From: a virus
Taxonomy: Duplodnaviria > Caudoviricetes
IMG/VR virus record: IMGVR_UViG_3300031992_000028
Length of the DNA stretch: 64,000 nucleotides
Direction: 5' to 3' (one strand)
The notes beneath the pieces were generated by a model. It was given only the letters and a program-made list of their open reading frames with translations, was not told the DNA's origin and ran no database searches. Made by a program: the position numbers and the translations under genes. Shown here piece by piece: positions 9,440-48,284 of the stretch (its first letter is position 1; each line of letters begins with the position of its first letter).

Positions 9440-10760
9440 TTTTCGTGCCCCAAAACGCCCCGTTTTGCTTTTTGCCCGAAATTGGTACGTTTTCGTTTTT
9501 TAGCTTTTCTGAATTTGCCCCGTTTTCGTTACTGGCCAGATCCGCGATCCAGGGCGTCCGAAATTAGTACGTTTTCAAAAACCGAAATCACCCCAGTTTC
9601 AAAAAGCCGAAATCAGTACGTTTTCAAAATAGCCAATTTGGGGCGATTTCGTTTTGGGGCAGATAAAATACCTACTTAATATAAAAAGTGTCACAGAATG
9701 CGTTTGTGACATGTCTGTGACTATTCTAAGCTTTTGCCATATAACTAAAAGAAAAGCGACGACTCAGAGCCTGGATTTAAGAGAGAGGTGATGGCTCGTT
9801 GTGTGTCGTCGCCGGCTAAGAGGACATTGTGGGTGACCGGTTAGCCTTGAAAGGAGGTAATTGTCATAAGGGGATTTGACTCGCTAAACTGCCCGAAACC
9901 TAATGACTTGATTCTGTTTGTGATTCTGTTTAAATTACGTATCGTTAGTTTTTTTGACACTCTATTGATTACCTATCGTTATACGTATCGTCTGAGGCAT
10001 TCCTTTTCATTATTGGCAGTTTTTCGGTTGCCTCATACTATATTATACAACTAAAAATTATTTTTTAACAACTTTTTTCAAATTTAGGCAATTTCAGCTT
10101 CACATGTGTGCGTGTGTGGCGGCGCGCCAGTATTCTTAAACGTTAGAAGAATACCGCGCGTGGCCATGTGCGTGCGTATACACCAAAGCTTTCAAACTAA
10201 GGCAATTTCAAATTGAGCTGATTTCAAACGCAGGTCGACTTTAGCTTATATATTTTTTTATTTAAATAAAATAAATATATAAGTTAAAAAGTGCTCAAAG
10301 TGGGTTAATTTGTAAAAAAAGTTAAAAAAACTATTTACAGCTATTTACTTTTGTGCTATAATATTGTTATAATGGGGAGTGTTTTTTTATAAAAAAATAA
10401 AAAAGCCCTTAAATTAGCATAGTTCAGGCTGTATAATATAATAGGGAATAAAATGAAATTGTTCCAATTTCATTTATGTGTGCGCAAGCACACACGTGTA
10501 ATACTAAAAAAATTCATTACTAAATCAGGGTGTTTTTAATAATTTAATAAATTAATAATTTAATGATTTAATGTTTTAATAAATTATTAACACATAAATA
10601 TATGTACATGAATTATCTATATTAATTCTTAGCTAATATCATATAGCTATAGTAGCATAGCTTATAATAATAGCTTATATATAAGCTTTTGGCGCCCGCA
10701 CACATATGTACATGCGTACAGTAAGTACGGAATTAAAGTAGTTTCAAATTGAGGAGATTT
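9440..10760. other. non-coding repeat-rich region, candidate replication origin or genome-terminus region
   Basis: TACGTTTTC x3 (9487, 9568, 9617), CCGAAATCA repeats, TTTCAAA-N3-GG..ATTTCA repeats, alternating purine-pyrimidine tracts, AT-rich 9-mer array; adjacent to a helicase gene. Confidence 0.5.
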
Positions 10761-10766
10761 CAAAAC

Positions 10767-11072
10767 ATGGCGAATCCAGAACAAAAGAAGTGACCAGTCA
10801 TCACTTGTCCACATTGCGGTTATCAATATGCCCCAGCAGAGATATTCATGCCAGGAGATCTGATTGGCAATCCAGAACAAGTTGTTAGAGATGCACTTGG
10901 CAAAATCATCTACCAAGAGTATGATGAAGATAGTGAACCAGCACAAGTTGGGCACTACATCTGCGACGAGTGTGGAAAACCATTCATCGTAGAGCCAGTA
11001 ATTACATATAAAGTTAAGAAAGAAGATGAGGCTAAAGATTTCAGTGACCTTTCAGCCAGCTTACTAGACTAA
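10767..11072 (+). CDS. zinc-ribbon protein (code 4)
   Basis: GAGGAG SD; starting at ATG10767 through TGA10791 gives both CPHC and CDEC. Confidence 0.75.
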
Positions 11073-37460: not shown

Positions 37461-37602
37461 CTTAAAAAATAACTGCTAAATTAAATACAAAACAGGCCGT
37501 TTAGACCAAATCTAGGCGGCTTTATTTTATTTAAAATTGGCTAAATTTAGTACACAAATAAATTGTATATTATTAAGAAGAAAGGATGTTTTTTTATTCA
37601 CT

Positions 37603-39846
37603 ATGATAGTTATTAAGCGTGATGGTAAAAAAGTAGATTTTGATGTCTACAAGATTAAAAAAGCTCTTATCGGAGCAAATAGTCGTTCTCAAGAAATGTC
37701 TGATGACGATATTGAAAGAATTACTGAAATTATCTTAAATAAATGTAATAAAGCAACTGGTGATTTAAAAGTTGAAGATATCCAAGATATTGTTGAAGAC
37801 ACTTTATTAAAAAGTAAGTTTAATAGAACAGCTAAGACATATATTCTTTATAGAGACAAAAGAACAAGAATTAGACAAGGTAAATCTAAACTTTTAAAAG
37901 AAGTTGGTGATAAGCTTATGGGCGTTCATATTGTCAACCAAAATGCTAATGTCGATGAACGTTCATTTGGTGGTCGTAAGGGTGAAGCAGACAGTGTTTT
38001 AACTAAACAATATGCTTTAGATTATTGCATGTCTGAAAAGTCTAGAAATAATCATTTAAATAATGAAATTTATATTCATGATTTAGATTCATATGCTGTT
38101 GGTATGCACAACTGCTTATCAATTCCCTTTGATGATTTATTGGCCAAAGGTTTTAATACAAGACAAACCGATGTTAGGCCAGCTGCTTCAATTAATACTG
38201 CTTTCCAATTAGTTGCTGTTATATTCCAACTTCAAAGCTTACAACAATTTGGTGGTGTTTCAGCAACCCACTTAGACTGGACAATGGTTCCTTATGTTAG
38301 AAAAAGTTTTCTAAAGCATTATATTTTTGAGTATTTAAAAGATACTGAAGAATTCTATACTCTTAATCTTGAATCATTAGCTGATGAGGAAATCGATGAA
38401 TGGGTTAAGGAAAACAAACATAAATATCTAGATATGTGGCAATGTAAAGAAGAAGACTTTTATATTGGTAATGAAGGCTTAGACAAGCATTTTTATCAAA
38501 AAGCATTATTTGAAACACGTAGGGAATTAATGCAAGCAGTTGAAGGCATGTATCATAACTTAAATACACTTCAATCAAGAAGTGGTAATCAACTTCCATT
38601 TACTTCAATTAACTATGGAACATGCACTTTACCTGAAGGTAGAATGGTCATTAGAGCTTTATTAGAAGGAAGTTTGAAAGGTGTTGGAAAACTTCATAGA
38701 ACTCCAATCTTCCCATGTGGTATTTTCCAATATATGAAGGGTGTAAATGATAAGCCAGGAACTCCGAATTATGATTTATATAAATTAGCTTTAAAATCAA
38801 CAGCAAAACGTTTGTATCCAAACTACGCTAATGTAGACTGGAGCAACAATGCTGGCTATGACAGAAACGATCCTAAGACTTATTTCTCAACTATGGGCTG
38901 TAGAACTGCAAATGGTGCTGATATTAATGCAGAACCGGGTGTAAATCCACAAACCAAAGACGGTCGTGGAAATATCTGCCCAGTTACAATTATCATGCCA
39001 ACATTAGCTATGGAAGCGGGCAGAGATGTTGAGAAATTCATGGCTTTACTTAATACAAAAATACATGAAGCCAAAGATATGTTAATTGAAAGATATGAAT
39101 ATATCTGCAGCCAATGTGCAGATTCCGCTAAGTTCATGTATGAGAATGGAACTATGATGGGATATAAACCAGAAGAGGGCGTTAGAAGCGCCATGAAGCA
39201 CGGAACTCTTGTTATTGGACAAATTGCTTTAGCTGAGACTTTAGAGCTTCTAATCGGCAAAAATCAATGCACACCAGAAGGTATGGAATTAGCCAAGAGA
39301 ATTGAGCAATTATTCAAAGATAGATGTGCTGAGTTTAAACAAAGATACCACTTAAACTTCGGTGTTTATTATACTCCAGCTGAAAATTTATGCTATACTG
39401 CAATGAAAAAATTTAAAGAAAAATACGGTATAATAAAGAATGTATCAGACCGTGAATATTTTACAAATAGTATTCATGTTCCAGTTTGGGAAAAAGTATC
39501 AGCTTTTGAAAAAATTGATATTGAATCTCAATTAACAGGATATTCAAATGCTGGTTGCATTACTTATGTCGAATTAAGTTCAGCTGCAACTGGAAACTTA
39601 GACGCATTAGAATCATTGGTTAACTATGCAATGGATCATGACATTCCATATTTCGCAGTCAACATTCCAAACGATACTTGCTTAGAGTGTGGTTATACTG
39701 GTGAATTCAACGATCACTGTCCAGAATGTGGAAGTCACAACATTCAGCAATTACGCCGCGTTACTGGTTATTTGACCGGAAATTATAAAACAGCATTTAA
39801 CTACGGAAAACAAAAAGAAGTAGAAGATAGGGTGAAACATATTTAG
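37603..39846 (+). CDS. nrdD: anaerobic (class III) ribonucleotide reductase
   Basis: ATP cone VIKRDG, HIHDLD-like YIHDLD, TPAENL, CLEC/CPEC, RRVTGYL glycyl-radical motif. Confidence 0.97.
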   Translation: MIVIKRDGKKVDFDVYKIKKALIGANSRSQEMSDDDIERITEIILNKCNKATGDLKVEDIQDIVEDTLLKSKFNRTAKTYILYRDKRTRIRQGKSKLLKEVGDKLMGVHIVNQNANVDERSFGGRKGEADSVLTKQYALDYCMSEKSRNNHLNNEIYIHDLDSYAVGMHNCLSIPFDDLLAKGFNTRQTDVRPAASINTAFQLVAVIFQLQSLQQFGGVSATHLDWTMVPYVRKSFLKHYIFEYLKDTEEFYTLNLESLADEEIDEWVKENKHKYLDMWQCKEEDFYIGNEGLDKHFYQKALFETRRELMQAVEGMYHNLNTLQSRSGNQLPFTSINYGTCTLPEGRMVIRALLEGSLKGVGKLHRTPIFPCGIFQYMKGVNDKPGTPNYDLYKLALKSTAKRLYPNYANVDWSNNAGYDRNDPKTYFSTMGCRTANGADINAEPGVNPQTKDGRGNICPVTIIMPTLAMEAGRDVEKFMALLNTKIHEAKDMLIERYEYICSQCADSAKFMYENGTMMGYKPEEGVRSAMKHGTLVIGQIALAETLELLIGKNQCTPEGMELAKRIEQLFKDRCAEFKQRYHLNFGVYYTPAENLCYTAMKKFKEKYGIIKNVSDREYFTNSIHVPVWEKVSAFEKIDIESQLTGYSNAGCITYVELSSAATGNLDALESLVNYAMDHDIPYFAVNIPNDTCLECGYTGEFNDHCPECGSHNIQQLRRVTGYLTGNYKTAFNYGKQKEVEDRVKHI

Positions 39847-39847
39847 T

Positions 39848-40537
39848 ATGAAATTTAAAAAATTACCTTTTACAGAACATGCACAATTTGTATTTAAATC
39901 TATTCTTGCTGCAGTATTAATTGCTATGGCAGGTGGAATATTTTTACTTTGTACTAATACTGGAACAATTCAAGATCCATTTCTTGCAAAAGTGGTTGGT
40001 TCGTTCTTATTTTCTTTAGGCTTATGTGTAGTCATTGCATTACAAGCAAATTTATATACAGGTAAAATTGGGTATGTTAATAGTAAACATTTAGCCATTA
40101 GAGCTTTTTGGATGCTATTTATTAACTTAGGTATTGCATTTTTAATCGGTTGGCTGTTTAGAGGTGTAAATACCTCTATTCCATCTTTTGGCCAAGGAAG
40201 TCCTTTTGGGCCAGATAGTACTAGATTGAGCAAAGCTTGGTATCAGTTTTTATTTGATGGATTTGGCTGTGGTGTATTAATTTATCTTGCAGTGGAATTA
40301 TATAGAAAAACAAGAAGCTTCCTACCTGTAATTATGTGCGTAATGGCATTTATACTGAGTGGTGCTGAACACTGCATAGCAGATGCATTTTATCTTGGTG
40401 CCAGTCAGTTTAGCTGGGAAGCTCTTGGTGACTTAGGATTAGCTATTATTGGAAACACTTTTGGAAGTATTGCAATACATTGGTTACAAGTAGGAGCAGA
40501 ATACTTAAATGAACTACCTAACAATATACAAAGATAG
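39848..40537 (+). CDS. formate/nitrite transporter (FNT/FocA-like channel)
   Basis: About 6 hydrophobic helices; LYTGK, GCGVLIYLAV, FILSGAEHCIAD, IIGNTFG. Confidence 0.85.
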   Translation: MKFKKLPFTEHAQFVFKSILAAVLIAMAGGIFLLCTNTGTIQDPFLAKVVGSFLFSLGLCVVIALQANLYTGKIGYVNSKHLAIRAFWMLFINLGIAFLIGWLFRGVNTSIPSFGQGSPFGPDSTRLSKAWYQFLFDGFGCGVLIYLAVELYRKTRSFLPVIMCVMAFILSGAEHCIADAFYLGASQFSWEALGDLGLAIIGNTFGSIAIHWLQVGAEYLNELPNNIQR

Positions 40538-41036
40538 CATAAGCGATGGTCCTGGTGTAAGGGTTTCAGTTTATTTTGCCGGATGTTTGCCAAATAAGTG
40601 TGGAAATAAGAATTGTCCTGGTTGTCACAATCCAGAAGCTCAAAAGTTTACAGCAGGTGAAGAATATACTGAAGAAACAAAGAATTATATTCTAGGTCTT
40701 TGTAGAAATCCATATATTGCTGGTTTGACTCTCTGTGGCGGTGAGCCATACGATCAAGATGAAAATCAATTAATTGAGCTTTTGAAGGCTTTTCGTAAGC
40801 AAAACCCAGATAAAAATGTTTGAATTTATACAGGTTATGAATTTGAACAGATTAAAAATAGAGAGCTAACTAAGCAGGCTGATGTTGCAGTTGTTGGGCC
40901 ATTCATCTTAGAACAAAGGGATATTTCTGACGCTAATAGATGGCGTGGAAGCAGAAATCAACGTGTGTTAGACTTGCCAAAATCTTTAGAAAATGGCAAA
41001 ATAATCAAGCTAGAAAATATTCCAAATAATGAATAA
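40509..41036 (+). CDS. nrdG: anaerobic RNR activase (code 4)
   Basis: DGPGVRVSVYFAGC..CPGCHN, GGEP, KNV(TGA)IYTGY, WRGSRNQRV. Confidence 0.93.
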
Positions 41037-41730: not shown

Positions 41731-42777
41731 ATGAGTGATAAAAAAAATTTAGATTTAGCTAAGTTAAAGGCAGATGATGAATTCTATACTTCTTTTGCTG
41801 ATATTGTCACAGAATTATCACATTGAATAAGTAAATTAAAAGATAAAAAAATTATTTGTCCATGTGATTTTATTCCGACTAAGAAAATAAGCTCTATAAC
41901 AATTGATTTTAGCCAGGGTAAATATTTTATTAACTCAGTTAAAAAGAAAGCTTCAGATACGCCGTATTTTAATTTATTTGAGGACTTTACAGTGTCTGAA
42001 CCGGCAACTGAAATTTCTGAAAGTCAATTAAGAGAAATTTTAGCTAATCAAGAAGTAGTAAATTTTGTTAATTATTTATGGGCAGTTGGTAAGGAAGCTA
42101 GGGTCAAATCTATTACAGCATCGGGTTATAATATTAAGTCTGGCCTTGGTATTAGTTTTGATGAAGTAGATTATAGTCAATATGATTTAGTTATTACAAA
42201 TCCACCATTTAGTTTGTATAGTAGCTTTATGGAATGCATTGGTGATATTGATAAAATTATTATCGCACCATTTATGAATAGAGTTGCTCCATGTGTTGCT
42301 ATTCCGCTTATGGAAAGAAAAGCTTATTTAGGTTATGGAAGACATTTAGCAATGAATTTCAACAATCCAACTGGTGGTAAAGGTAAAAAGGTTGCAGTTG
42401 ATTGGATTGTTTCTTGGCCTGATGCACAAGATGAAGTAGATAAATTGTCCTGTAAAACTGGTATTAGATATGACATTTTGTCCTATAAAGACATGCCATA
42501 TATGACAATGAAAGATGGAACAAAGCCAATTAAAATTAATTCAGTTCAACAAATTCCAGATGACTATAATGGCTATATGTTTACATCAGTTGCTGTTTTA
42601 GATAAATTAAGCTATAATGAGTTTGATTGGATTTGCACAGGTTGTAAACGATATTTTAATAAAGAGCATCCAGAATTAAATCCATTTGCACATAAAGTTT
42701 CAAATGAAATGATTGGCTATGGAACAGAAAATTCATGCTTTCATGGAATTCTATTTAAAAGAAAGCGTATAATATAG
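41731..42777 (+). CDS. adenine-specific DNA methyltransferase, EcoRI-methylase-like (code 4)
   Basis: AKLKADDEFYT..ELSH(TGA)..KKIICPCD..VITNPPFSL. Confidence 0.8.
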
Positions 42778-44230: not shown

Positions 44231-44489
44231 AGGAGATTTTTATGGAAAAAATTATTAAAGCACTTAAAGATTATGTTAGAGTTAATGAGTCAAATAACAC
44301 AGTTGAAATTTTTAATGAATATGGTGTTAAAATGAGACTTGAAGTTGATGCAGAAACTTTAGCTGAATTTAAAAAGCACTATCCAAGTTTCTAACTTATA
44401 TAAATAAAAAAATAGCGTAAGTGTTTAAAAATAGATACTTACGCTTTTATTTTTATTTAAAGGTTGTATAATATAATAGAGATTTAATT

Positions 44490-45074
44490 ATGGGAAAGCT
44501 AGCAAAGCATTTAAAAACTATTAGAATTCATAGAAAACAAGTACGAAAAATGTGCTGGAAAATGGGCTTATTTTGGCAAGGCCTAGTCCATGACTTATCA
44601 AAATATTCTTATACTGAGCTAAAAATATGTAAATACTGGACAGGAAAAGGATCACCGCATCAAGCTTGTAGAGAAGCTATTGGTTATAGTCCTAGTTGGA
44701 ATCATCATTATCATAGAAATAAACATCATTTTCAATTTTGGTGGGATGAAGATGAAGTAGGCAACATTATTCCAGTTAAAATGCCTTACAAATATGTTAT
44801 AGAAAGCTTTTGTGATATGGTTGGGGCCAGTAAAGCTTATGGCGGAAAAACTTGGAAAGAAGAAGCAGTATGGAATTACTGGATTGATAAATGCAAAGGC
44901 CAAAGATTGATGAATAAGGAATCTGAATATTTAGTTGAAAAGCTTATTTGGAATTATTATCAACATGGTGAAAAAGAATTTATTAGTTTATATAAAAGAA
45001 TTAAAAAGAATTTAAAAGAAAGTTATGAAAAAGGCACCTTAATTGCCGAGGACAGTTGTTATGCTCAATATTAG
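44490..45074 (+). CDS. HD-like protein (DUF5662-type)
   Basis: H..HDLSKY..HHYHRNKHH..ESFCD. Confidence 0.75.
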   Translation: MGKLAKHLKTIRIHRKQVRKMCWKMGLFWQGLVHDLSKYSYTELKICKYWTGKGSPHQACREAIGYSPSWNHHYHRNKHHFQFWWDEDEVGNIIPVKMPYKYVIESFCDMVGASKAYGGKTWKEEAVWNYWIDKCKGQRLMNKESEYLVEKLIWNYYQHGEKEFISLYKRIKKNLKESYEKGTLIAEDSCYAQY

Positions 45075-45942
45075 AAAAAATGTTTTTGAGACAAATAGTT
45101 CATCTATGCATAGTTTGGTTATTGTTAAAAAGCCAAAACCTTATACTAAGAATGAATTAAATCTTTTTACTTACCATAATAAAAATGAATTTAATTTATT
45201 TGATTGGTCTGAAGACGGTAATTATGAAAGAGCGCCTTATAGAGTCTTAAGAACACCACTTGATAAACTTAGATACTACAGTGCTTATATTTTAGGTACC
45301 TGTGGAGAGCTTGATAAAATCAATGATATTAAAAATTTTATTAATCAACAAACAGGTATTAATCAAGAAAATATTAATCTTGAACATATTGAAACTCATT
45401 ATATTAAAAGAGACAAAGAAGTTGAAACTAGAGATTATGGGTATGTTAGTCAAAATGATTCTGGCGAAGATGTTTTTGAGTTTGTAAAAAGAAAGAATAT
45501 TGATTGGAAAGATCTTATTTTAAATCCAAAATATGTTATTATTGTTGATGGCGATGAATATCAGCTATTTAAAGCATTATTTGATAGTAATATTTTAGAT
45601 GCAAATAATTTTGAAGATATTTCTTCTGGTCCAGACTTTTGGAATGATTCAGAAAAGTGTATTTATTTAAGCTGGTTTGAATCTGCTACTTTAACTGAAC
45701 AGACTGCAGACCATTATGCAGATGATATTTCTGAATTTATTAATACCTTAAAGTTTGTAATTTCAGTTGATACTTATAAATTATATAATAAACATATGCA
45801 ATTAATTAAAGATATCTGTGCACTTGCAAGAAGTAAAAATCCAAATATTAAAATTATTTTAGAAAATGATTATTATGAACGTGAAAAAGTAAAAAGTGTT
45901 TCAGCACTAGATACTTCTATGTTTGATGAGGTTAGAATTTAA
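45061..45942 (+). CDS. ETNSSS-motif protein, type A
   Basis: MLNIRKNVFETNSSSMHSLV. Confidence 0.85.
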   Translation: MLNIRKNVFETNSSSMHSLVIVKKPKPYTKNELNLFTYHNKNEFNLFDWSEDGNYERAPYRVLRTPLDKLRYYSAYILGTCGELDKINDIKNFINQQTGINQENINLEHIETHYIKRDKEVETRDYGYVSQNDSGEDVFEFVKRKNIDWKDLILNPKYVIIVDGDEYQLFKALFDSNILDANNFEDISSGPDFWNDSEKCIYLSWFESATLTEQTADHYADDISEFINTLKFVISVDTYKLYNKHMQLIKDICALARSKNPNIKIILENDYYEREKVKSVSALDTSMFDEVRI

Positions 45943-46376
45943 TGATACAAATTAGAAATGGCACATTTGAAACTAATAGTAGCTCAACTCATTCTTTAGT
46001 TATATTAAATAAAGAGGATTGGGAAGAGGTTAAAAATGGTAATTTATTTATTGATATTTTAGATGCAGAAAGATATTCTAAGTTTCCTAGATTAGTTACA
46101 GAGAATTTTATTTTCGCAGAAGCCAGAGAAGATTATTTAGAAGAAGAAAGGTCTCGTGGCAAAGATTGTCATAATTCTTTCAGAGATGGACATTATATTT
46201 CTTGGGAAGAAATTTTAGCAAACTGCAAAGGTGATTATCGCGGATATGATTGTAATATTTTTGGTATGGCAGGCGAAAAATATATCAATCCAAAAAGCTG
46301 CGTTTGGCACAGTTGTACAGAAGAAGATTTAGGCAATGGAACAGTTAAAGTTGAAATAGACCATTTCTTTGGTTAG
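45942..46376 (+). CDS. ETNSSS-motif protein, type B
   Basis: MIQIRNGTFETNSSSTHSLV. Confidence 0.85.
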   Translation: MIQIRNGTFETNSSSTHSLVILNKEDWEEVKNGNLFIDILDAERYSKFPRLVTENFIFAEAREDYLEEERSRGKDCHNSFRDGHYISWEEILANCKGDYRGYDCNIFGMAGEKYINPKSCVWHSCTEEDLGNGTVKVEIDHFFG

Positions 46377-46385
46377 GAGAATAAT

Positions 46386-46922
46386 ATGATTAAAATTAGA
46401 AATTCAGTTTTTGAAACAAACAGCAGCTCATCACACAGTTTAGTTTTTTCTAAGGTTGATAGAGGACATAATTATGATTTACCAGTTGATGAAGATGGTA
46501 TTTTAACTATTCCATTCGGTGAATTTGGCTGGGGTCCTGAAGTTCTTAGAACACCTTTAGAAAAGTTGTCTTATACTGTTACTGATAGAGGTGGTTGGTC
46601 TTATGATGACGATAGTAAATCTTGGGATGAAATTTTAGAAGAATTAAAAGAAGATGATGAAATTCAACAAATTATTGAAATAGTCAAAAGAAATGTTCCA
46701 GCGGTAAGAGAAGTTACTTTTGAGCCAGCCAGTGATTGTTATCCTCGTGGATATGTAGATCATCAAAGCCAGGGAACTTCAAGAAATGCTGATACTGAAG
46801 ATATAATTTTTAATAATAGTATTATTATTTTAATCGATAATGATAATAGTTGTCATTTTGAGGATTATATTAAAATCTGGAGTGATAGTCCAGCTTCTAA
46901 GGATATAGAAGATTTATTTTAA
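46386..46922 (+). CDS. ETNSSS-motif protein, type A
   Basis: MIKIRNSVFETNSSSSHSLV. Confidence 0.85.
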   Translation: MIKIRNSVFETNSSSSHSLVFSKVDRGHNYDLPVDEDGILTIPFGEFGWGPEVLRTPLEKLSYTVTDRGGWSYDDDSKSWDEILEELKEDDEIQQIIEIVKRNVPAVREVTFEPASDCYPRGYVDHQSQGTSRNADTEDIIFNNSIIILIDNDNSCHFEDYIKIWSDSPASKDIEDLF

Positions 46923-46933
46923 AGGAGATAAGT

Positions 46934-47305
46934 ATGGTTCAAGTAAGAAAAGGTGTTTTTGAAACAAATAGTTCTAGCACCCACAGCCTAGTTATGGCTG
47001 TTCAATCAGAGTTTGACAAATGGGAAAATGGAGAACTTTATTACTGTGAATGGTTTGGTAGTAAATTAAAAGAAGCTGGTTTTGAGGAAAAAGATTTTTA
47101 TACTAAAGAAGAAGTTAAAAAAGCTTGCGAAATTTTAGGCATTGAATTTGATTCAGATGAAGATGGCTGGAGCGAGCGCAGAGAACATTTCGTTACATAT
47201 GATGAATTCTGTGATACAGATTATCTTGAAACTAATGAATATTCTTATACTACGCCTTCAGGTGAAGTTGTTAAAGCTATTGCAAAATATGGCTATGATG
47301 GCTAA
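46934..47305 (+). CDS. ETNSSS-motif protein, type B
   Basis: MVQVRKGVFETNSSSTHSLV. Confidence 0.85.
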   Translation: MVQVRKGVFETNSSSTHSLVMAVQSEFDKWENGELYYCEWFGSKLKEAGFEEKDFYTKEEVKKACEILGIEFDSDEDGWSERREHFVTYDEFCDTDYLETNEYSYTTPSGEVVKAIAKYGYDG

Positions 47306-47387
47306 TTAAAAAATAATAAAAGTATTAAAAAGGGGCTAAACCGGCCTCTTTTTTGTTGTATAATAAAATATAGCGAGGTAAATTATT

Positions 47388-48284
47388 ATGGAATTACTTG
47401 GAAAAGTTCGTAATGGTAATTATGATATTTATATGTTTTCTGACGGTACAAAGGTTAGAAAAAATAATTTAGATTGTTTTATTCCTGATAAGCCAGAAAG
47501 TATGGATTATAAAATTACAAATAAATGTGATAAAGGTTGTGCATTTTGTCATGAAGATAGCAGACCAGATGGCCAACATGGCGATATTATGCATGATAAG
47601 TTTATTGAAACATTAAATCCGTATACTGAATTAGCAATTGGTGGTGGAAATCCTTTAGAGCACCCTGATTTAATTAAGTTTTTAAGAAAATGTAAAAAAC
47701 TTAGACTTATTCTAAATATGACTGTTAATCAAGTTCATTTTATGAAACACTTTGATGAGATTAAGAGAATGATTGATGAGCATTTAATTTATGGTTTAGG
47801 CGTTTCTTTAGTTACTATTACAGATGAATTTATTAAAAAAGTTCAACAAATTCCAACTGCAGTTATCCACATGATTAATGGAGTTCATTCAGTTGAAGAC
47901 TTTAAGAAACTTTATGATAAAAATTTAAAAATTTTAATTCTTGGCTATAAAGAATTTAGACGTGGTAAAGCTTATTATAACGAAGAAGTTGAATTTGAAA
48001 AAGAAAGGCTTTATGTATTTTTACCAGAAGTTGTAGAGCATTTTAAAGTTGTTAGTTTTGACAATTTAGCTCTTGACCAATTAAAAGTCAAAGATATGTT
48101 ATCTAAAGCTGAATGGGATCAATTTTTCATGGGAAATGATGGTACTTTTACGATGTATGTAGATTCTGTAAATAAAACATTTAGTAGAAGCTCTACCACA
48201 CCTATTGAACAAAGACATGCCATGTTAGATGATATTAAACCAATGTTTGACCAAATTCGTTCAGAAAGTCAAACAAGTTTATAA
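47388..48284 (+). CDS. radical SAM enzyme
   Basis: ITNKCDKGCAFCHE (CxxxCxxC), AIGGGNPLEHP. Confidence 0.9.
   Translation: MELLGKVRNGNYDIYMFSDGTKVRKNNLDCFIPDKPESMDYKITNKCDKGCAFCHEDSRPDGQHGDIMHDKFIETLNPYTELAIGGGNPLEHPDLIKFLRKCKKLRLILNMTVNQVHFMKHFDEIKRMIDEHLIYGLGVSLVTITDEFIKKVQQIPTAVIHMINGVHSVEDFKKLYDKNLKILILGYKEFRRGKAYYNEEVEFEKERLYVFLPEVVEHFKVVSFDNLALDQLKVKDMLSKAEWDQFFMGNDGTFTMYVDSVNKTFSRSSTTPIEQRHAMLDDIKPMFDQIRSESQTSL

Follow-up and report, generated by a model that had tools for sequence, protein, structure and literature searches.

Within the window analyzed, which is the entire 64,000-nucleotide stretch of this Caudoviricetes phage (IMG/VR record IMGVR_UViG_3300031992_000028), four co-oriented neighboring genes encode proteins that begin with the same serine-rich stretch of 17 residues. 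These genes lie between a DUF5662 (HD-like) gene and a gene for a radical SAM enzyme, and the region carries the following features.

44414-44445 (+), terminator-like hairpin that closes the upstream unit (14-bp stem followed by a T run)
44464-44472 (+), promoter-like TTGTATAAT (extended -10), 18 nt before ATG 44490, in front of the DUF5662 gene and the tagged-gene array
44490-45074 (+), DUF5662 (HD-like) protein, 194 aa, first gene of the unit, overlapping A1 by 14 nt
45061-45942 (+), A1, long tagged protein, 293 aa, an A-type domain with degenerate polar motifs (GYVSQND, VDGD) plus a C-terminal extension of about 125 aa with no known family
45942-46376 (+), B1, short tagged protein, 144 aa, ending in HFFG, its start overlapping the A1 stop by 1 nt
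46386-46922 (+), A2, canonical A-type tagged protein, 178 aa, with GEFGWGP, L.TP..KL.Y, GYVDHQS.G, IDNDN and E.LF
46934-47305 (+), B2, canonical short B-type tagged protein, 123 aa, ending in YGYDG
47327-47353 (+), terminator-like hairpin between the tagged-gene array and the radical SAM gene (11-bp stem followed by a T run)
47356-47364 (+), second TTGTATAAT promoter-like site, directly before the radical SAM gene
47388-48284 (+), radical SAM enzyme, 298 aa, with an N-terminal Y.NGN...DGTK.R hairpin, C47xxxC51xxC54 and no auxiliary-cluster domain

The TTGTATAAT motif occurs 22 times in the window against 2.5 expected. The array (DUF5662-A1-B1-A2-B2) and the enzyme gene are adjacent units, each with its own promoter-like site.

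A first-pass annotation of the sequence had described four adjacent genes sharing an N-terminal motif in A-B-A-B order, and this observation is confirmed in every sequence detail. The four proteins begin MLNIRKNVFETNSSSMHSLV, MIQIRNGTFETNSSSTHSLV, MIKIRNSVFETNSSSSHSLV and MVQVRKGVFETNSSSTHSLV, conforming to M-x-x-(I/V)-R-x-x-x-FETNSSS-x-HS, and a six-frame scan finds exactly these four copies in the window. One correction concerns gene 1, which starts at ATG 45061, preceded by a GAGGA ribosome-binding site, rather than at TTG 45043. This start gives the Met-to-Glu distance of 9 that is seen family-wide. The Ser codons switch between AGY and TCN among the four copies, so selection acts on the peptide and the motif is not a DNA repeat. 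The phage uses code 4 (TGA=Trp), but this does not change any of these ORFs.

Genes 1 and 3 (A1 and A2) share LRTPL(D/E)KL.Y, GYV and a hydrophobic h-h-h-D-(G/N)-D segment, and align over the whole A domain at 28% identity (E 4e-7). Genes 2 and 4 (B1 and B2) share NG(N/E)L, an aromatic-x-(S/T)-(W/Y)-(E/D)E segment and a C-terminal Gly, although BLASTP similarity between them covers only the first 36 residues. When the portions downstream of the tag are clustered, A1 and A2 fall in one cluster, B2 joins the main short cluster of 126 unique sequences, and B1 is a singleton, a divergent short form. The A-B-A-B reading therefore holds, and the same DUF5662-A-B-A-B-rSAM order is kept in a relative at 67% identity. 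No match to A1 was found in Pfam, NCBIfam or Atlas. An AF2 model of A2 (pLDDT 86.7) has no fold match in the PDB, including no resemblance to known pyruvoyl or Ntn enzymes or to the alkaline-phosphatase or sulfatase fold.

The gene upstream of the array matches DUF5662 (PF18907) at 2.2e-30, with 105.8 bits against a cut-off of 27 and coverage of positions 3-154 of the 156 in the profile, and contains an HD dipeptide. The first-pass annotation had placed this HD-type gene next to the array, but its membership in a general system is not supported. DUF5662 accompanies the module in the window and in only 4 of about 230 other loci (L229, L230, L162 and L190 of our collection of related loci), and is a lineage-restricted accessory.

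The gene downstream of the array belongs to the radical SAM superfamily. It matches PF04055 with 31.5 bits against a curated cut-off of 29.5 and phrog_16999 at 9e-44, and C47, C51 and C54 of its CxxxCxxC motif are invariant in 37 homologs. In a structural comparison, the homologous domain of a fused relative matches SkfB, SuiB, viperin and MoaA at E values of about 1e-8, in line with a partial TIM-barrel fold. The protein contains only two other Cys residues, neither of them conserved. No SPASM or twitch profile match was found, and NCBIfam SPASM families reach only 12-19 bits against cut-offs of 170-650. No RiPP recognition element (RRE) was matched in Pfam or NCBIfam, although the enzyme has a conserved N-terminal beta-hairpin of about 35 aa ahead of the Cys motif.

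To examine whether the tag and the enzyme are linked beyond this phage, a test that had been named beforehand, we assessed their co-occurrence in both directions. A radical SAM protein at 27-81% identity lies beside the tagged genes in 71 of 82 tag-seeded viral loci and in 48 of 64 loci from a genome collection. Of five loci lacking it nearby, two carry it elsewhere on the contig. Conversely, 78 of 79 enzyme-seeded loci hold 1-4 tagged genes. Among the 82 tag-seeded loci only two gene families recur broadly, namely the tagged proteins (80 loci) and this radical SAM family (70 loci), whereas every other family is found in 15 loci or fewer. The window conforms to the same arrangement, with RxxxFETNSSSxH starting 4-5 residues after Met1 in all four proteins and a cognate radical SAM gene without SPASM within a few kb on the same strand.

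The tag is the only universal element of the partner proteins. In 128 unique N-termini R5, E10, N12, S13, S14 and H17 are invariant, and F9, T11 and S15 are nearly so, while the Met-to-Glu distance is 9 or 10 in 162 of 173 sequences. A profile of the tag matches 7,501 protein clusters, almost all from phages, and the match lies at residues 1-33 in nearly all of the 150 best. The carriers include Lak megaphages, the Microcystis bloom phage Ma-LMM01 and a cultured Salmonella phage. In contrast, the tails are diverse. There are 1-10 tagged genes per enzyme, the tails fall into 28 clusters, and A and B tails show no profile homology. Pre-motif residues are more alike among paralogs of one genome than between genomes (0.54 versus 0.39, with 0 of 2000 resamples reaching this), suggestive of concerted evolution. 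However, this similarity could also come from gene conversion or shared 5′ constraints, and the loci are not independent.

The long (A-type) form is also fused N-terminally to the enzyme in at least 381 proteins, including gp146c of the cultured Salmonella phage Arash. The tag remains at the N-terminus of these fusions, but its Glu is always Ala (A13, invariant in 40 of 40), which suggests that Glu serves recognition between separate chains. Across hundreds of uncultured and a few cultured phages, the tag almost always travels with, or is fused to, this one radical SAM family. Together with the two-way synteny, the fusions make a working partnership between tagged proteins and enzyme very likely. 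We found no paper describing this tag, and neither the tag, the A-type fold nor this radical SAM subfamily has any described function.

The same data weigh against a targeting or processing signal unrelated to radical chemistry, with the radical SAM gene merely a neighbor. Tandem, fast-diverging phage genes that share only their first 10-20 residues, some of them with anti-defense cargo, resemble the internal-protein arrays of T4, whose shared element is a capsid-targeting sequence. Moreover, h-F-E followed by T resembles an L/I-x-E protease site, so that cleavage after Glu might be envisaged, and X-Ser bonds are the usual sites of pyruvoyl-type self-cleavage. However, the tag is invariant across unrelated phages, and its linkage with one radical SAM family is two-way and spans enzymes down to 27% identity and contigs of 43-430 kb, whereas a capsid signal should co-vary with head proteins. 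In addition, the tag heads an enzyme fusion in which the supposed cleavage residue is Ala. We consider this reading very unlikely.

The first-pass annotation had inferred that the Ser-rich motif is a site of modification or self-processing in an uncharacterized enzyme system, and this interpretation is only partly supported, in that the link to the enzyme is strong while nothing shows the tag to be the site of either event. Our preferred explanation, to which we assign a probability of about 45%, is that the locus is a duplicated copy of a widespread phage two-component module in which one radical SAM enzyme without auxiliary clusters covalently modifies otherwise diverse proteins bearing a common N-terminal handle. 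In this view, the first ~9 residues (h-x-h-R-x-x-h-F, a beta-strand) would dock on the enzyme, perhaps on its Y.NGN...DGTK.R hairpin, and place the N-S-S-S-x-H loop at the SAM/[4Fe-4S] site. The 5′-deoxyadenosyl radical would then abstract a hydrogen from one of the serines, yielding an epimerized residue, an aldehyde or dehydro residue, or a cross-link or adduct that matures the tagged protein. In A-type proteins the changed residue may then serve the domain's own polar pocket (DH.S, NDN(H), K..Y), with B-type and other forms being further clients. The invariant tag, its fixed N-terminal position, its two-way linkage with the enzyme and the fusions are established by the sequence data, whereas physical docking, on which our complex prediction gave no verdict, the targeted residue and the chemistry are inferred.

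Consistent with this explanation, the A-type polar motifs appear dispensable. By a coarse regular-expression typing, only 78 of 225 loci have a protein with both DH.S and NDN, and A1 of the window has lost both yet keeps a perfect tag. The tag region also has low confidence in both AF2 models, of A2 and of a fused protein, but the low-confidence stretch differs in register between them and may be an artifact. By fold, the nearest solved relatives of the enzyme include the peptide maturases SkfB, SuiB and CteB, although the nucleotide- and sugar-acting enzymes viperin, MoaA, BlsE and DesII are found at similar scores. Furthermore, the absence of auxiliary clusters and of a recognizable RRE removes the usual electron path for oxidative peptide chemistry and the usual leader-binding domain, and there is no direct evidence of binding or of any modification.

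It is also possible, though less likely, that the A-type protein and the radical SAM enzyme form a two-subunit or two-domain enzyme. The N-terminal motif might then be an active-site or interface loop that works with DH.S, NDN(H), K..Y and W, and the pair would act in sequence on a third molecule, such as a nucleotide, an NAD-derived signal or a nucleic acid, while B-type and other paralogs would be alternative or regulatory subunits docking through the same element. Fusing a substrate 1:1 to its enzyme is unusual, and the fusions, all in the same order as the split genes, fit a two-domain enzyme at least as well. A-type and fused forms conserve many polar residues outside the tag (W of FGW, K..Y, DH.S, NDN), as an active site would, and the model of the fused protein has a pTM of 0.86, suggesting a fixed arrangement of the two domains. 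The nucleotide- and sugar-acting structural neighbors fit this view, as do NAD-synthesis genes that lie near some related modules (NAD synthase in 14 of 224 loci, plus L230). However, most modules lack an intact A-type polar set, the modal module being a long protein plus a B-type protein plus the enzyme. B tails are unrelated to A tails yet keep the tag letter for letter, up to 10 paralogs per enzyme is odd for subunits, and the predicted A fold matches no known enzyme fold.

Alternatively, the tagged proteins might regulate or chaperone the enzyme, delivering or gating its real substrate or protecting its cluster, and bind through the tag without being changed themselves. The linkage and fusion data fit this equally well, and the Glu-to-Ala switch fits a pure docking role. 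Nonetheless, conservation of three consecutive Ser plus Asn and His in a tag found across 7,501 clusters is more than docking usually needs, and a chaperone does not explain the great diversity of tails. We regard this as unlikely.

One subfamily of tagged proteins is fused to, and ends in, a Tad2-like anti-defense domain (PF11195), which is related to anti-Thoeris nucleotide sponges. The domain is present only in relatives such as the protein at 9998-10789 of locus L013, with 32.8 bits against a cut-off of 25, and none of the four proteins of the window matches it. The fusion suggests that some clients act in counter-defense, although a nucleotide sponge would also fit a two-subunit enzyme acting on nucleotides. 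A broader and still more tentative reading is that a single enzyme without auxiliary clusters installs a radical-derived modification on the N-S-S-S-x-H loop of a portable 17-residue N-terminal tag and so matures a fast-diversifying repertoire of full-length phage proteins, anti-defense cargo included, one class of which has a predicted fold not represented in the PDB. This would be a general enzyme-plus-tag protein modification system of phages that has not been described. If the enzyme does modify the tag, this would be a new kind of radical post-translational modification acting on whole proteins, would explain a large block of phage "dark matter", and could supply a compact enzyme-plus-tag pair for protein engineering. 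The natural fusions and the cultured carriers make the question testable at the bench now.

Among described systems, RiPP radical SAM maturases with leader-bearing precursors (SuiB-SuiA of streptide, SkfB, CteB, PqqE-PqqA) likewise encode one enzyme next to one or several substrates that share an N-terminal recognition stretch and differ elsewhere. The present family differs in having no SPASM or twitch clusters and no detectable RRE, in that the putative precursors are full-size, apparently folded proteins of 90-320 aa, in that the conserved stretch would be both handle and target, and in being almost entirely viral. Radical SAM-SPASM genes beside FxSxx-motif peptides in vWA-MoxR conflict systems (Kaur, Burroughs, Iyer, Aravind 2020, PMC7159879) are predicted to encode enzymes that modify short conserved Ser-containing motifs on effector peptides or proteins, but that paper describes C-terminal peptides processed by a protease and a SPASM-type enzyme in bacterial ternary systems, and not this phage tag or this enzyme family without SPASM.

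The first-pass annotation had drawn an analogy with anaerobic sulfatase-maturating enzymes (AtsB, anSMEcpe), which mature whole proteins by acting on a Ser (or Cys) in a short motif near the N-terminus, and the A-type pocket rich in D, N and H loosely recalls a metal site around a modified residue. However, this analogy fails on its defining features, since those enzymes need two auxiliary SPASM clusters and recognize (C/S)-x-P-x-R, whereas the tag FETNSSSxHS has no such Pro or Arg pattern. Glycyl-radical activating enzymes (PFL-AE, NrdG) provide a further comparison. The tagged proteins have no RVxG-type glycine loop, none of the four in the window has a Gly_radical match, the motif is N-terminal and rich in Ser, and the enzyme, with its N-terminal hairpin, matches NrdG only weakly (TIGR02495, E 3e-4, 20 bits against a cut-off of 131). 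Nonetheless, these activases are also small radical SAM enzymes without auxiliary clusters that act on a loop of a folded protein partner, and the window carries a true nrdD-nrdG pair, with PF01228 found only in nrdD at 37537-39846.

The window is AT-rich (about 31% GC) phage DNA in which nearly all genes lie on the + strand. Between 44490 and 48284 are six co-oriented genes, which together with the signals around them are arranged as follows.

44414-44445, terminator-like hairpin preceding the DUF5662 gene
44464, a copy of the over-represented TTGTATAAT box, also preceding the DUF5662 gene
44490-45074, DUF5662/HD-like gene (PF18907, 2e-30)
45061 (ATG), start of the first of four consecutive genes that carry the shared N-terminal motif, or tag (A1, B1, A2 and B2)
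47327-47353, second terminator-like hairpin, between B2 and the radical SAM (rSAM) gene
47356, second TTGTATAAT box, also between B2 and the rSAM gene
47388-48284, rSAM gene, 298 aa

The rSAM protein matches PF04055 at 31.5 bits against a cut-off of 29.5 and phrog_16999 ('Fe-S oxidoreductase') at 9e-44. It carries C47xxxC51xxC54 and has no auxiliary-cluster domain. The four tagged proteins begin MLNIRKNVFETNSSSMHSLV, MIQIRNGTFETNSSSTHSLV, MIKIRNSVFETNSSSSHSLV and MVQVRKGVFETNSSSTHSLV, and a six-frame scan finds just these four copies in 64 kb. The first gene starts at ATG 45061, which has a GAGGA site and overlaps the DUF5662 stop by 14 nt. The serine codons of the motif switch between AGY and TCN among the copies, and therefore the repeat is kept at the protein level and is not a DNA repeat. 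A1 and A2 align over a whole domain of about 165 residues (28% identity, E 4e-7), whereas B1 and B2 are similar only in their first 36 residues. The first-pass annotation had described four genes with a common start in A-B-A-B order, and this observation is confirmed.

Searches of family libraries with the four tagged proteins gave no match in Pfam or NCBIfam, and PHROGs yielded only a weak match to phrog_28997, a family of unknown function. Ten further long tagged proteins gave no Pfam domain, and the Atlas gave no named cluster. Likewise, megablast and tblastn searches of GenBank phages with the locus and with A2 returned no match.

The TTGTATAAT box, of the extended -10 type, occurs 22 times in the window against 2.5 expected, an approximately nine-fold over-representation. 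The sites, which include 44064, 44464, 47356 and 51150, usually sit just before genes and often right after a terminator hairpin, and the box is probably the main promoter type of this phage. The tagged-gene array and the enzyme gene are therefore adjacent units with the same type of putative promoter.

To determine whether the tagged genes and the rSAM gene are linked beyond this phage, we first collected relatives. A2 has 226 relatives in the 90%-clustered protein collection, none of which has a Pfam domain, and the motif or A2 relatives occur in at least 338 IMG/VR loci. We then called ORFs in 82 tag-seeded loci and clustered every ORF within 6 kb. Only two families recur broadly: the tagged proteins (80 loci, 183 ORFs) and the rSAM (70 loci). 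Everything else is confined to 15 loci or fewer from single lineages. An rSAM at 27-81% identity lies beside tagged genes in 71 of 82 viral loci, and an rSAM lies beside tagged genes in 48 of 64 loci from the genome collection, which are mostly gut and rumen MAG contigs, many of them short. Of five loci lacking a nearby rSAM, two carry it elsewhere on the contig, two others are fragments that are 38-41% complete, and the fifth is a MAG of unstated completeness. Conversely, 78 of 79 rSAM-seeded loci hold 1-4 tagged genes, with a mode of two genes (59 loci), although this sample is biased because it comprises the closest relatives at 50-66% identity.

There are 1 to 10 tagged genes per enzyme. 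The largest arrays seen are in L095 and L103 (loci on Fibrobacter and Prevotella MAG contigs), where ten tagged genes lie within about 10 kb of one rSAM. The order DUF5662-A-B-A-B-rSAM-PDF-ligase is kept in a relative at 67% identity, so the duplication is not recent. Other neighbors could be set aside as parts of the module. Peptide deformylase (PDF) is adjacent in only 2 of 82 loci and was rejected as a partner. DUF5662 was rejected as a core component because it is lineage-restricted, accompanying the module only in the window and in four other loci (L229, L230, L162 and L190). NAD-related genes (nicotinamidase-like, PRPP synthetase, NADAR, NMNAT-like and NAD synthase) lie next to the module in some relatives, including L230:1-3416 and L001:16004-16663, and Salmonella phage Arash has a nicotinamide phosphoribosyltransferase about 5 kb away. 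However, NAD synthase is present in only 14 of 224 loci, an association that is too weak to build on in the absence of a control for the background rate.

Among known phages, the module is carried by Microcystis phage Ma-LMM01 and its relatives, in which gp130 is a tagged protein and gp128 is the 'Fe-S oxidoreductase', and by Lak megaphages, in which the rSAM is followed by four tagged genes. Phage Arash carries a fused form. No other record among 50,697 GenBank phages has it. A literature search for 'ETNSSS' returned no papers, and searches on phage radical SAM enzymes and anti-defence, on Arash and on Ma-LMM01 gave nothing about function; papers on the two phages say nothing about these genes. 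Kaur et al. 2020 (PMC7159879) predict rSAM-SPASM modification of FxSxx peptides in bacterial conflict systems, which is related in kind but is a different system.

The tag itself is highly conserved. Over 128 unique N-termini, R5, E10, N12, S13, S14 and H17 never vary, and F9, T11 and S15 vary once or twice. The start Met lies 9 or 10 residues before the Glu in 162 of 173 proteins. A 34-position profile of the tag finds 7,501 clusters (50% identity) among 1.84 billion, 930 of them at E of 1e-10 or below, and the match covers residues 1-33 in nearly all of the 150 best. Two hits (P0244 and P0245) are called proteins with a second, internal tag that is preceded by Met at the usual distance. These are most likely two adjacent tagged genes merged by read-through of a recoded stop codon.

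In contrast, after residue 24 the proteins fall into 28 clusters. These include a long family of 263 unique sequences, among them A1 and A2, whose ends include ...DNDNH and ...YxKGN, a short family of 126, among them B2, ending ...FGxYGYDG, and many singletons, among them B1. A and B tails show no profile-profile homology (probability 1.4%). Canonical A-type proteins also conserve GEFGWGP, K..Y, GY(V/I)DH(Q/E)S.G and IDNDN(H). However, by a coarse regex typing only 78 of 225 loci hold a protein with both DH.S and NDN, and A1 of this window has replaced them (GYVSQND, VDGD) while keeping a perfect tag.

While collecting rSAM homologs, we found a previously unrecognized fusion at L052:16000-17826 (a locus among these homologs). 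This 609-aa protein starts MKIHNIRLGFACNSSSTHSF, continues with an A-type domain, and then has the rSAM hairpin and core. Arash gp146c (L149:5458-6888, OQ632216.1; 476 aa) is annotated 'methyltransferase' but has the same build; it is a cultured, genetically tractable carrier of the system. A search from the rSAM side found at least 381 such proteins of 334-1066 aa, typically 460-500 aa, whereas a search for longer proteins with A2 as query returned none. In an alignment of 40 fusions, R, G, A, N-S-S-S and H are invariant, and FGW, K..Y, IDHQS and GGNDN are kept. The Glu of the split form is always Ala, and the Thr varies among C, T, N, A and M. So the universal core is R...N-S-S-S-x-H-S, and the Glu appears to matter only when the tag and the enzyme are separate chains.

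A second kind of fusion joins an A-type tagged protein to a Tad2-like domain (PF11195, anti-Thoeris sponge; 32.8 bits). In L013:9998-10789 the Tad2-like domain occupies residues 184-252, and the gene sits between two other tagged genes and directly after the rSAM. About 12 related loci (L014-L034) carry this form, as does an Atlas cluster in which 97% of members have PF11195. The rSAM gene can also be interrupted: at L050:11397-13838 an intein-like insert lies exactly at the third Cys of CxxxCxxC (...CVF / ...VSN C HENS...), and two fused homologs (P0214 and P0225) carry intein Pfam domains PF14528 and PF14890.

To assess whether structure suggests a function, we examined AF2 models. The A2 model is confident overall (pLDDT 86.7, pTM 0.84), but residues 1-13 fall below 50. 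It matches nothing solved, with a best Foldseek E of 1.0 against the PDB and a best VIA-align Z of 2.1 over 48,161 chains. Against BFVD and the Atlas, its confident matches are only uncharacterised phage proteins and the Tad2-fusion cluster. Resemblances to PIN (hhhDTN), HAD (DxDxT), SGNH and the flavodoxin phosphate loop were considered, but none is supported by the fold searches. A fused protein, P0126, models at pLDDT 84.6 and pTM 0.86, with residues 15-25 (the N-S-S-S-x-H-S stretch) below 50. Because the low-confidence segment differs between the two models, flexibility of the tag is only weakly indicated. The rSAM half of P0126 is closest to SkfB, SuiB, CteB, viperins, BlsE, DesII, MoaA and PqqE at E of 1e-8 to 1e-5. 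This is the MoaA/PqqE/SkfB branch, and it does not decide between peptide and small-molecule substrates. A predicted complex of the rSAM with SAM, a 4Fe-4S cluster and A2 scored 0.02 and 0.19 against a mark of 0.32, values that we use neither for nor against docking.

We also compared paralogs from different tail clusters at the variable pre-motif positions (2-4 and 6-8). Paralogs in the same locus share these residues more than do proteins from different loci (0.54 versus 0.39; 0 of 2000 resamples reach this). This fits adaptation to a genome-specific partner, but could also reflect gene conversion or 5′ constraints, and the loci are not independent.

A functional partnership between the tagged proteins and the rSAM is very well supported by two-way synteny across deep divergence and by Rosetta-stone fusions. 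The feature is real, widespread and undescribed. The first-pass annotation had inferred a radical-SAM-linked system in which the motif is a modification or self-processing site, and this interpretation is partly supported: the link to the enzyme finds support, whereas modification of the tag remains the leading hypothesis but is unproven. The motif, its co-occurrence with the enzyme and the fusions are read directly from sequences, while docking, modification and any chemistry are inferred.

In the reading we favor, with a probability of about 0.45, the tag is the docking and modification site of the enzyme. This best explains why the tag is the only universal element, why it survives in paralogs that lost the A-type polar residues, why tails are unrelated and numerous, and why the Glu becomes dispensable on fusion. 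Alternatively, the two proteins might form a two-subunit enzyme acting on a third molecule, which best explains the fusions and the A-type polar constellation; we consider this possible but less probable. A hybrid, in which the enzyme would create a protein-derived catalytic residue in the A-type pocket, falls within the first reading. A pure docking or chaperone role is unlikely, and targeting or self-cleavage signals unrelated to the enzyme are more doubtful still. With no auxiliary clusters, redox-neutral outcomes or outcomes based on an adduct or a stable radical (epimerisation, adenosylation) would be chemically easier than anSME-type oxidation, although this is inference only.

The module is not an anSME-sulfatase pair, as it has no SPASM and no (C/S)xPxR, and it is not a glycyl-radical pair, as it has no Gly loop. 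Nor is it shown to be a RiPP system, since no RRE was detected and the putative clients are full-size proteins.

Elsewhere in the window, nrdG (40509-41036) is a complete 175-aa protein only if the TGA at 40821-40823 is read as Trp (...NPDKNVW-IYTGY...), whereas under code 11 it stops at 104 aa. The phage therefore appears to use code 4, and other genes in the window may be split by standard ORF calling, although code 4 changes none of the six ORFs described here. In the region 37537-40823, nrdD (PF13597, with ATP-cone and glycine radical) is followed directly by a formate/nitrite transporter family gene (PF01226, 2.6e-19) and then nrdG, which confirms a neighboring first-pass entry proposing a formate channel inside the anaerobic RNR operon. 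At 41992-42777, an EcoRI-type adenine methyltransferase match covers only profile positions 137-343 of 345, and the N-terminal part may lie upstream, across a TGA codon.
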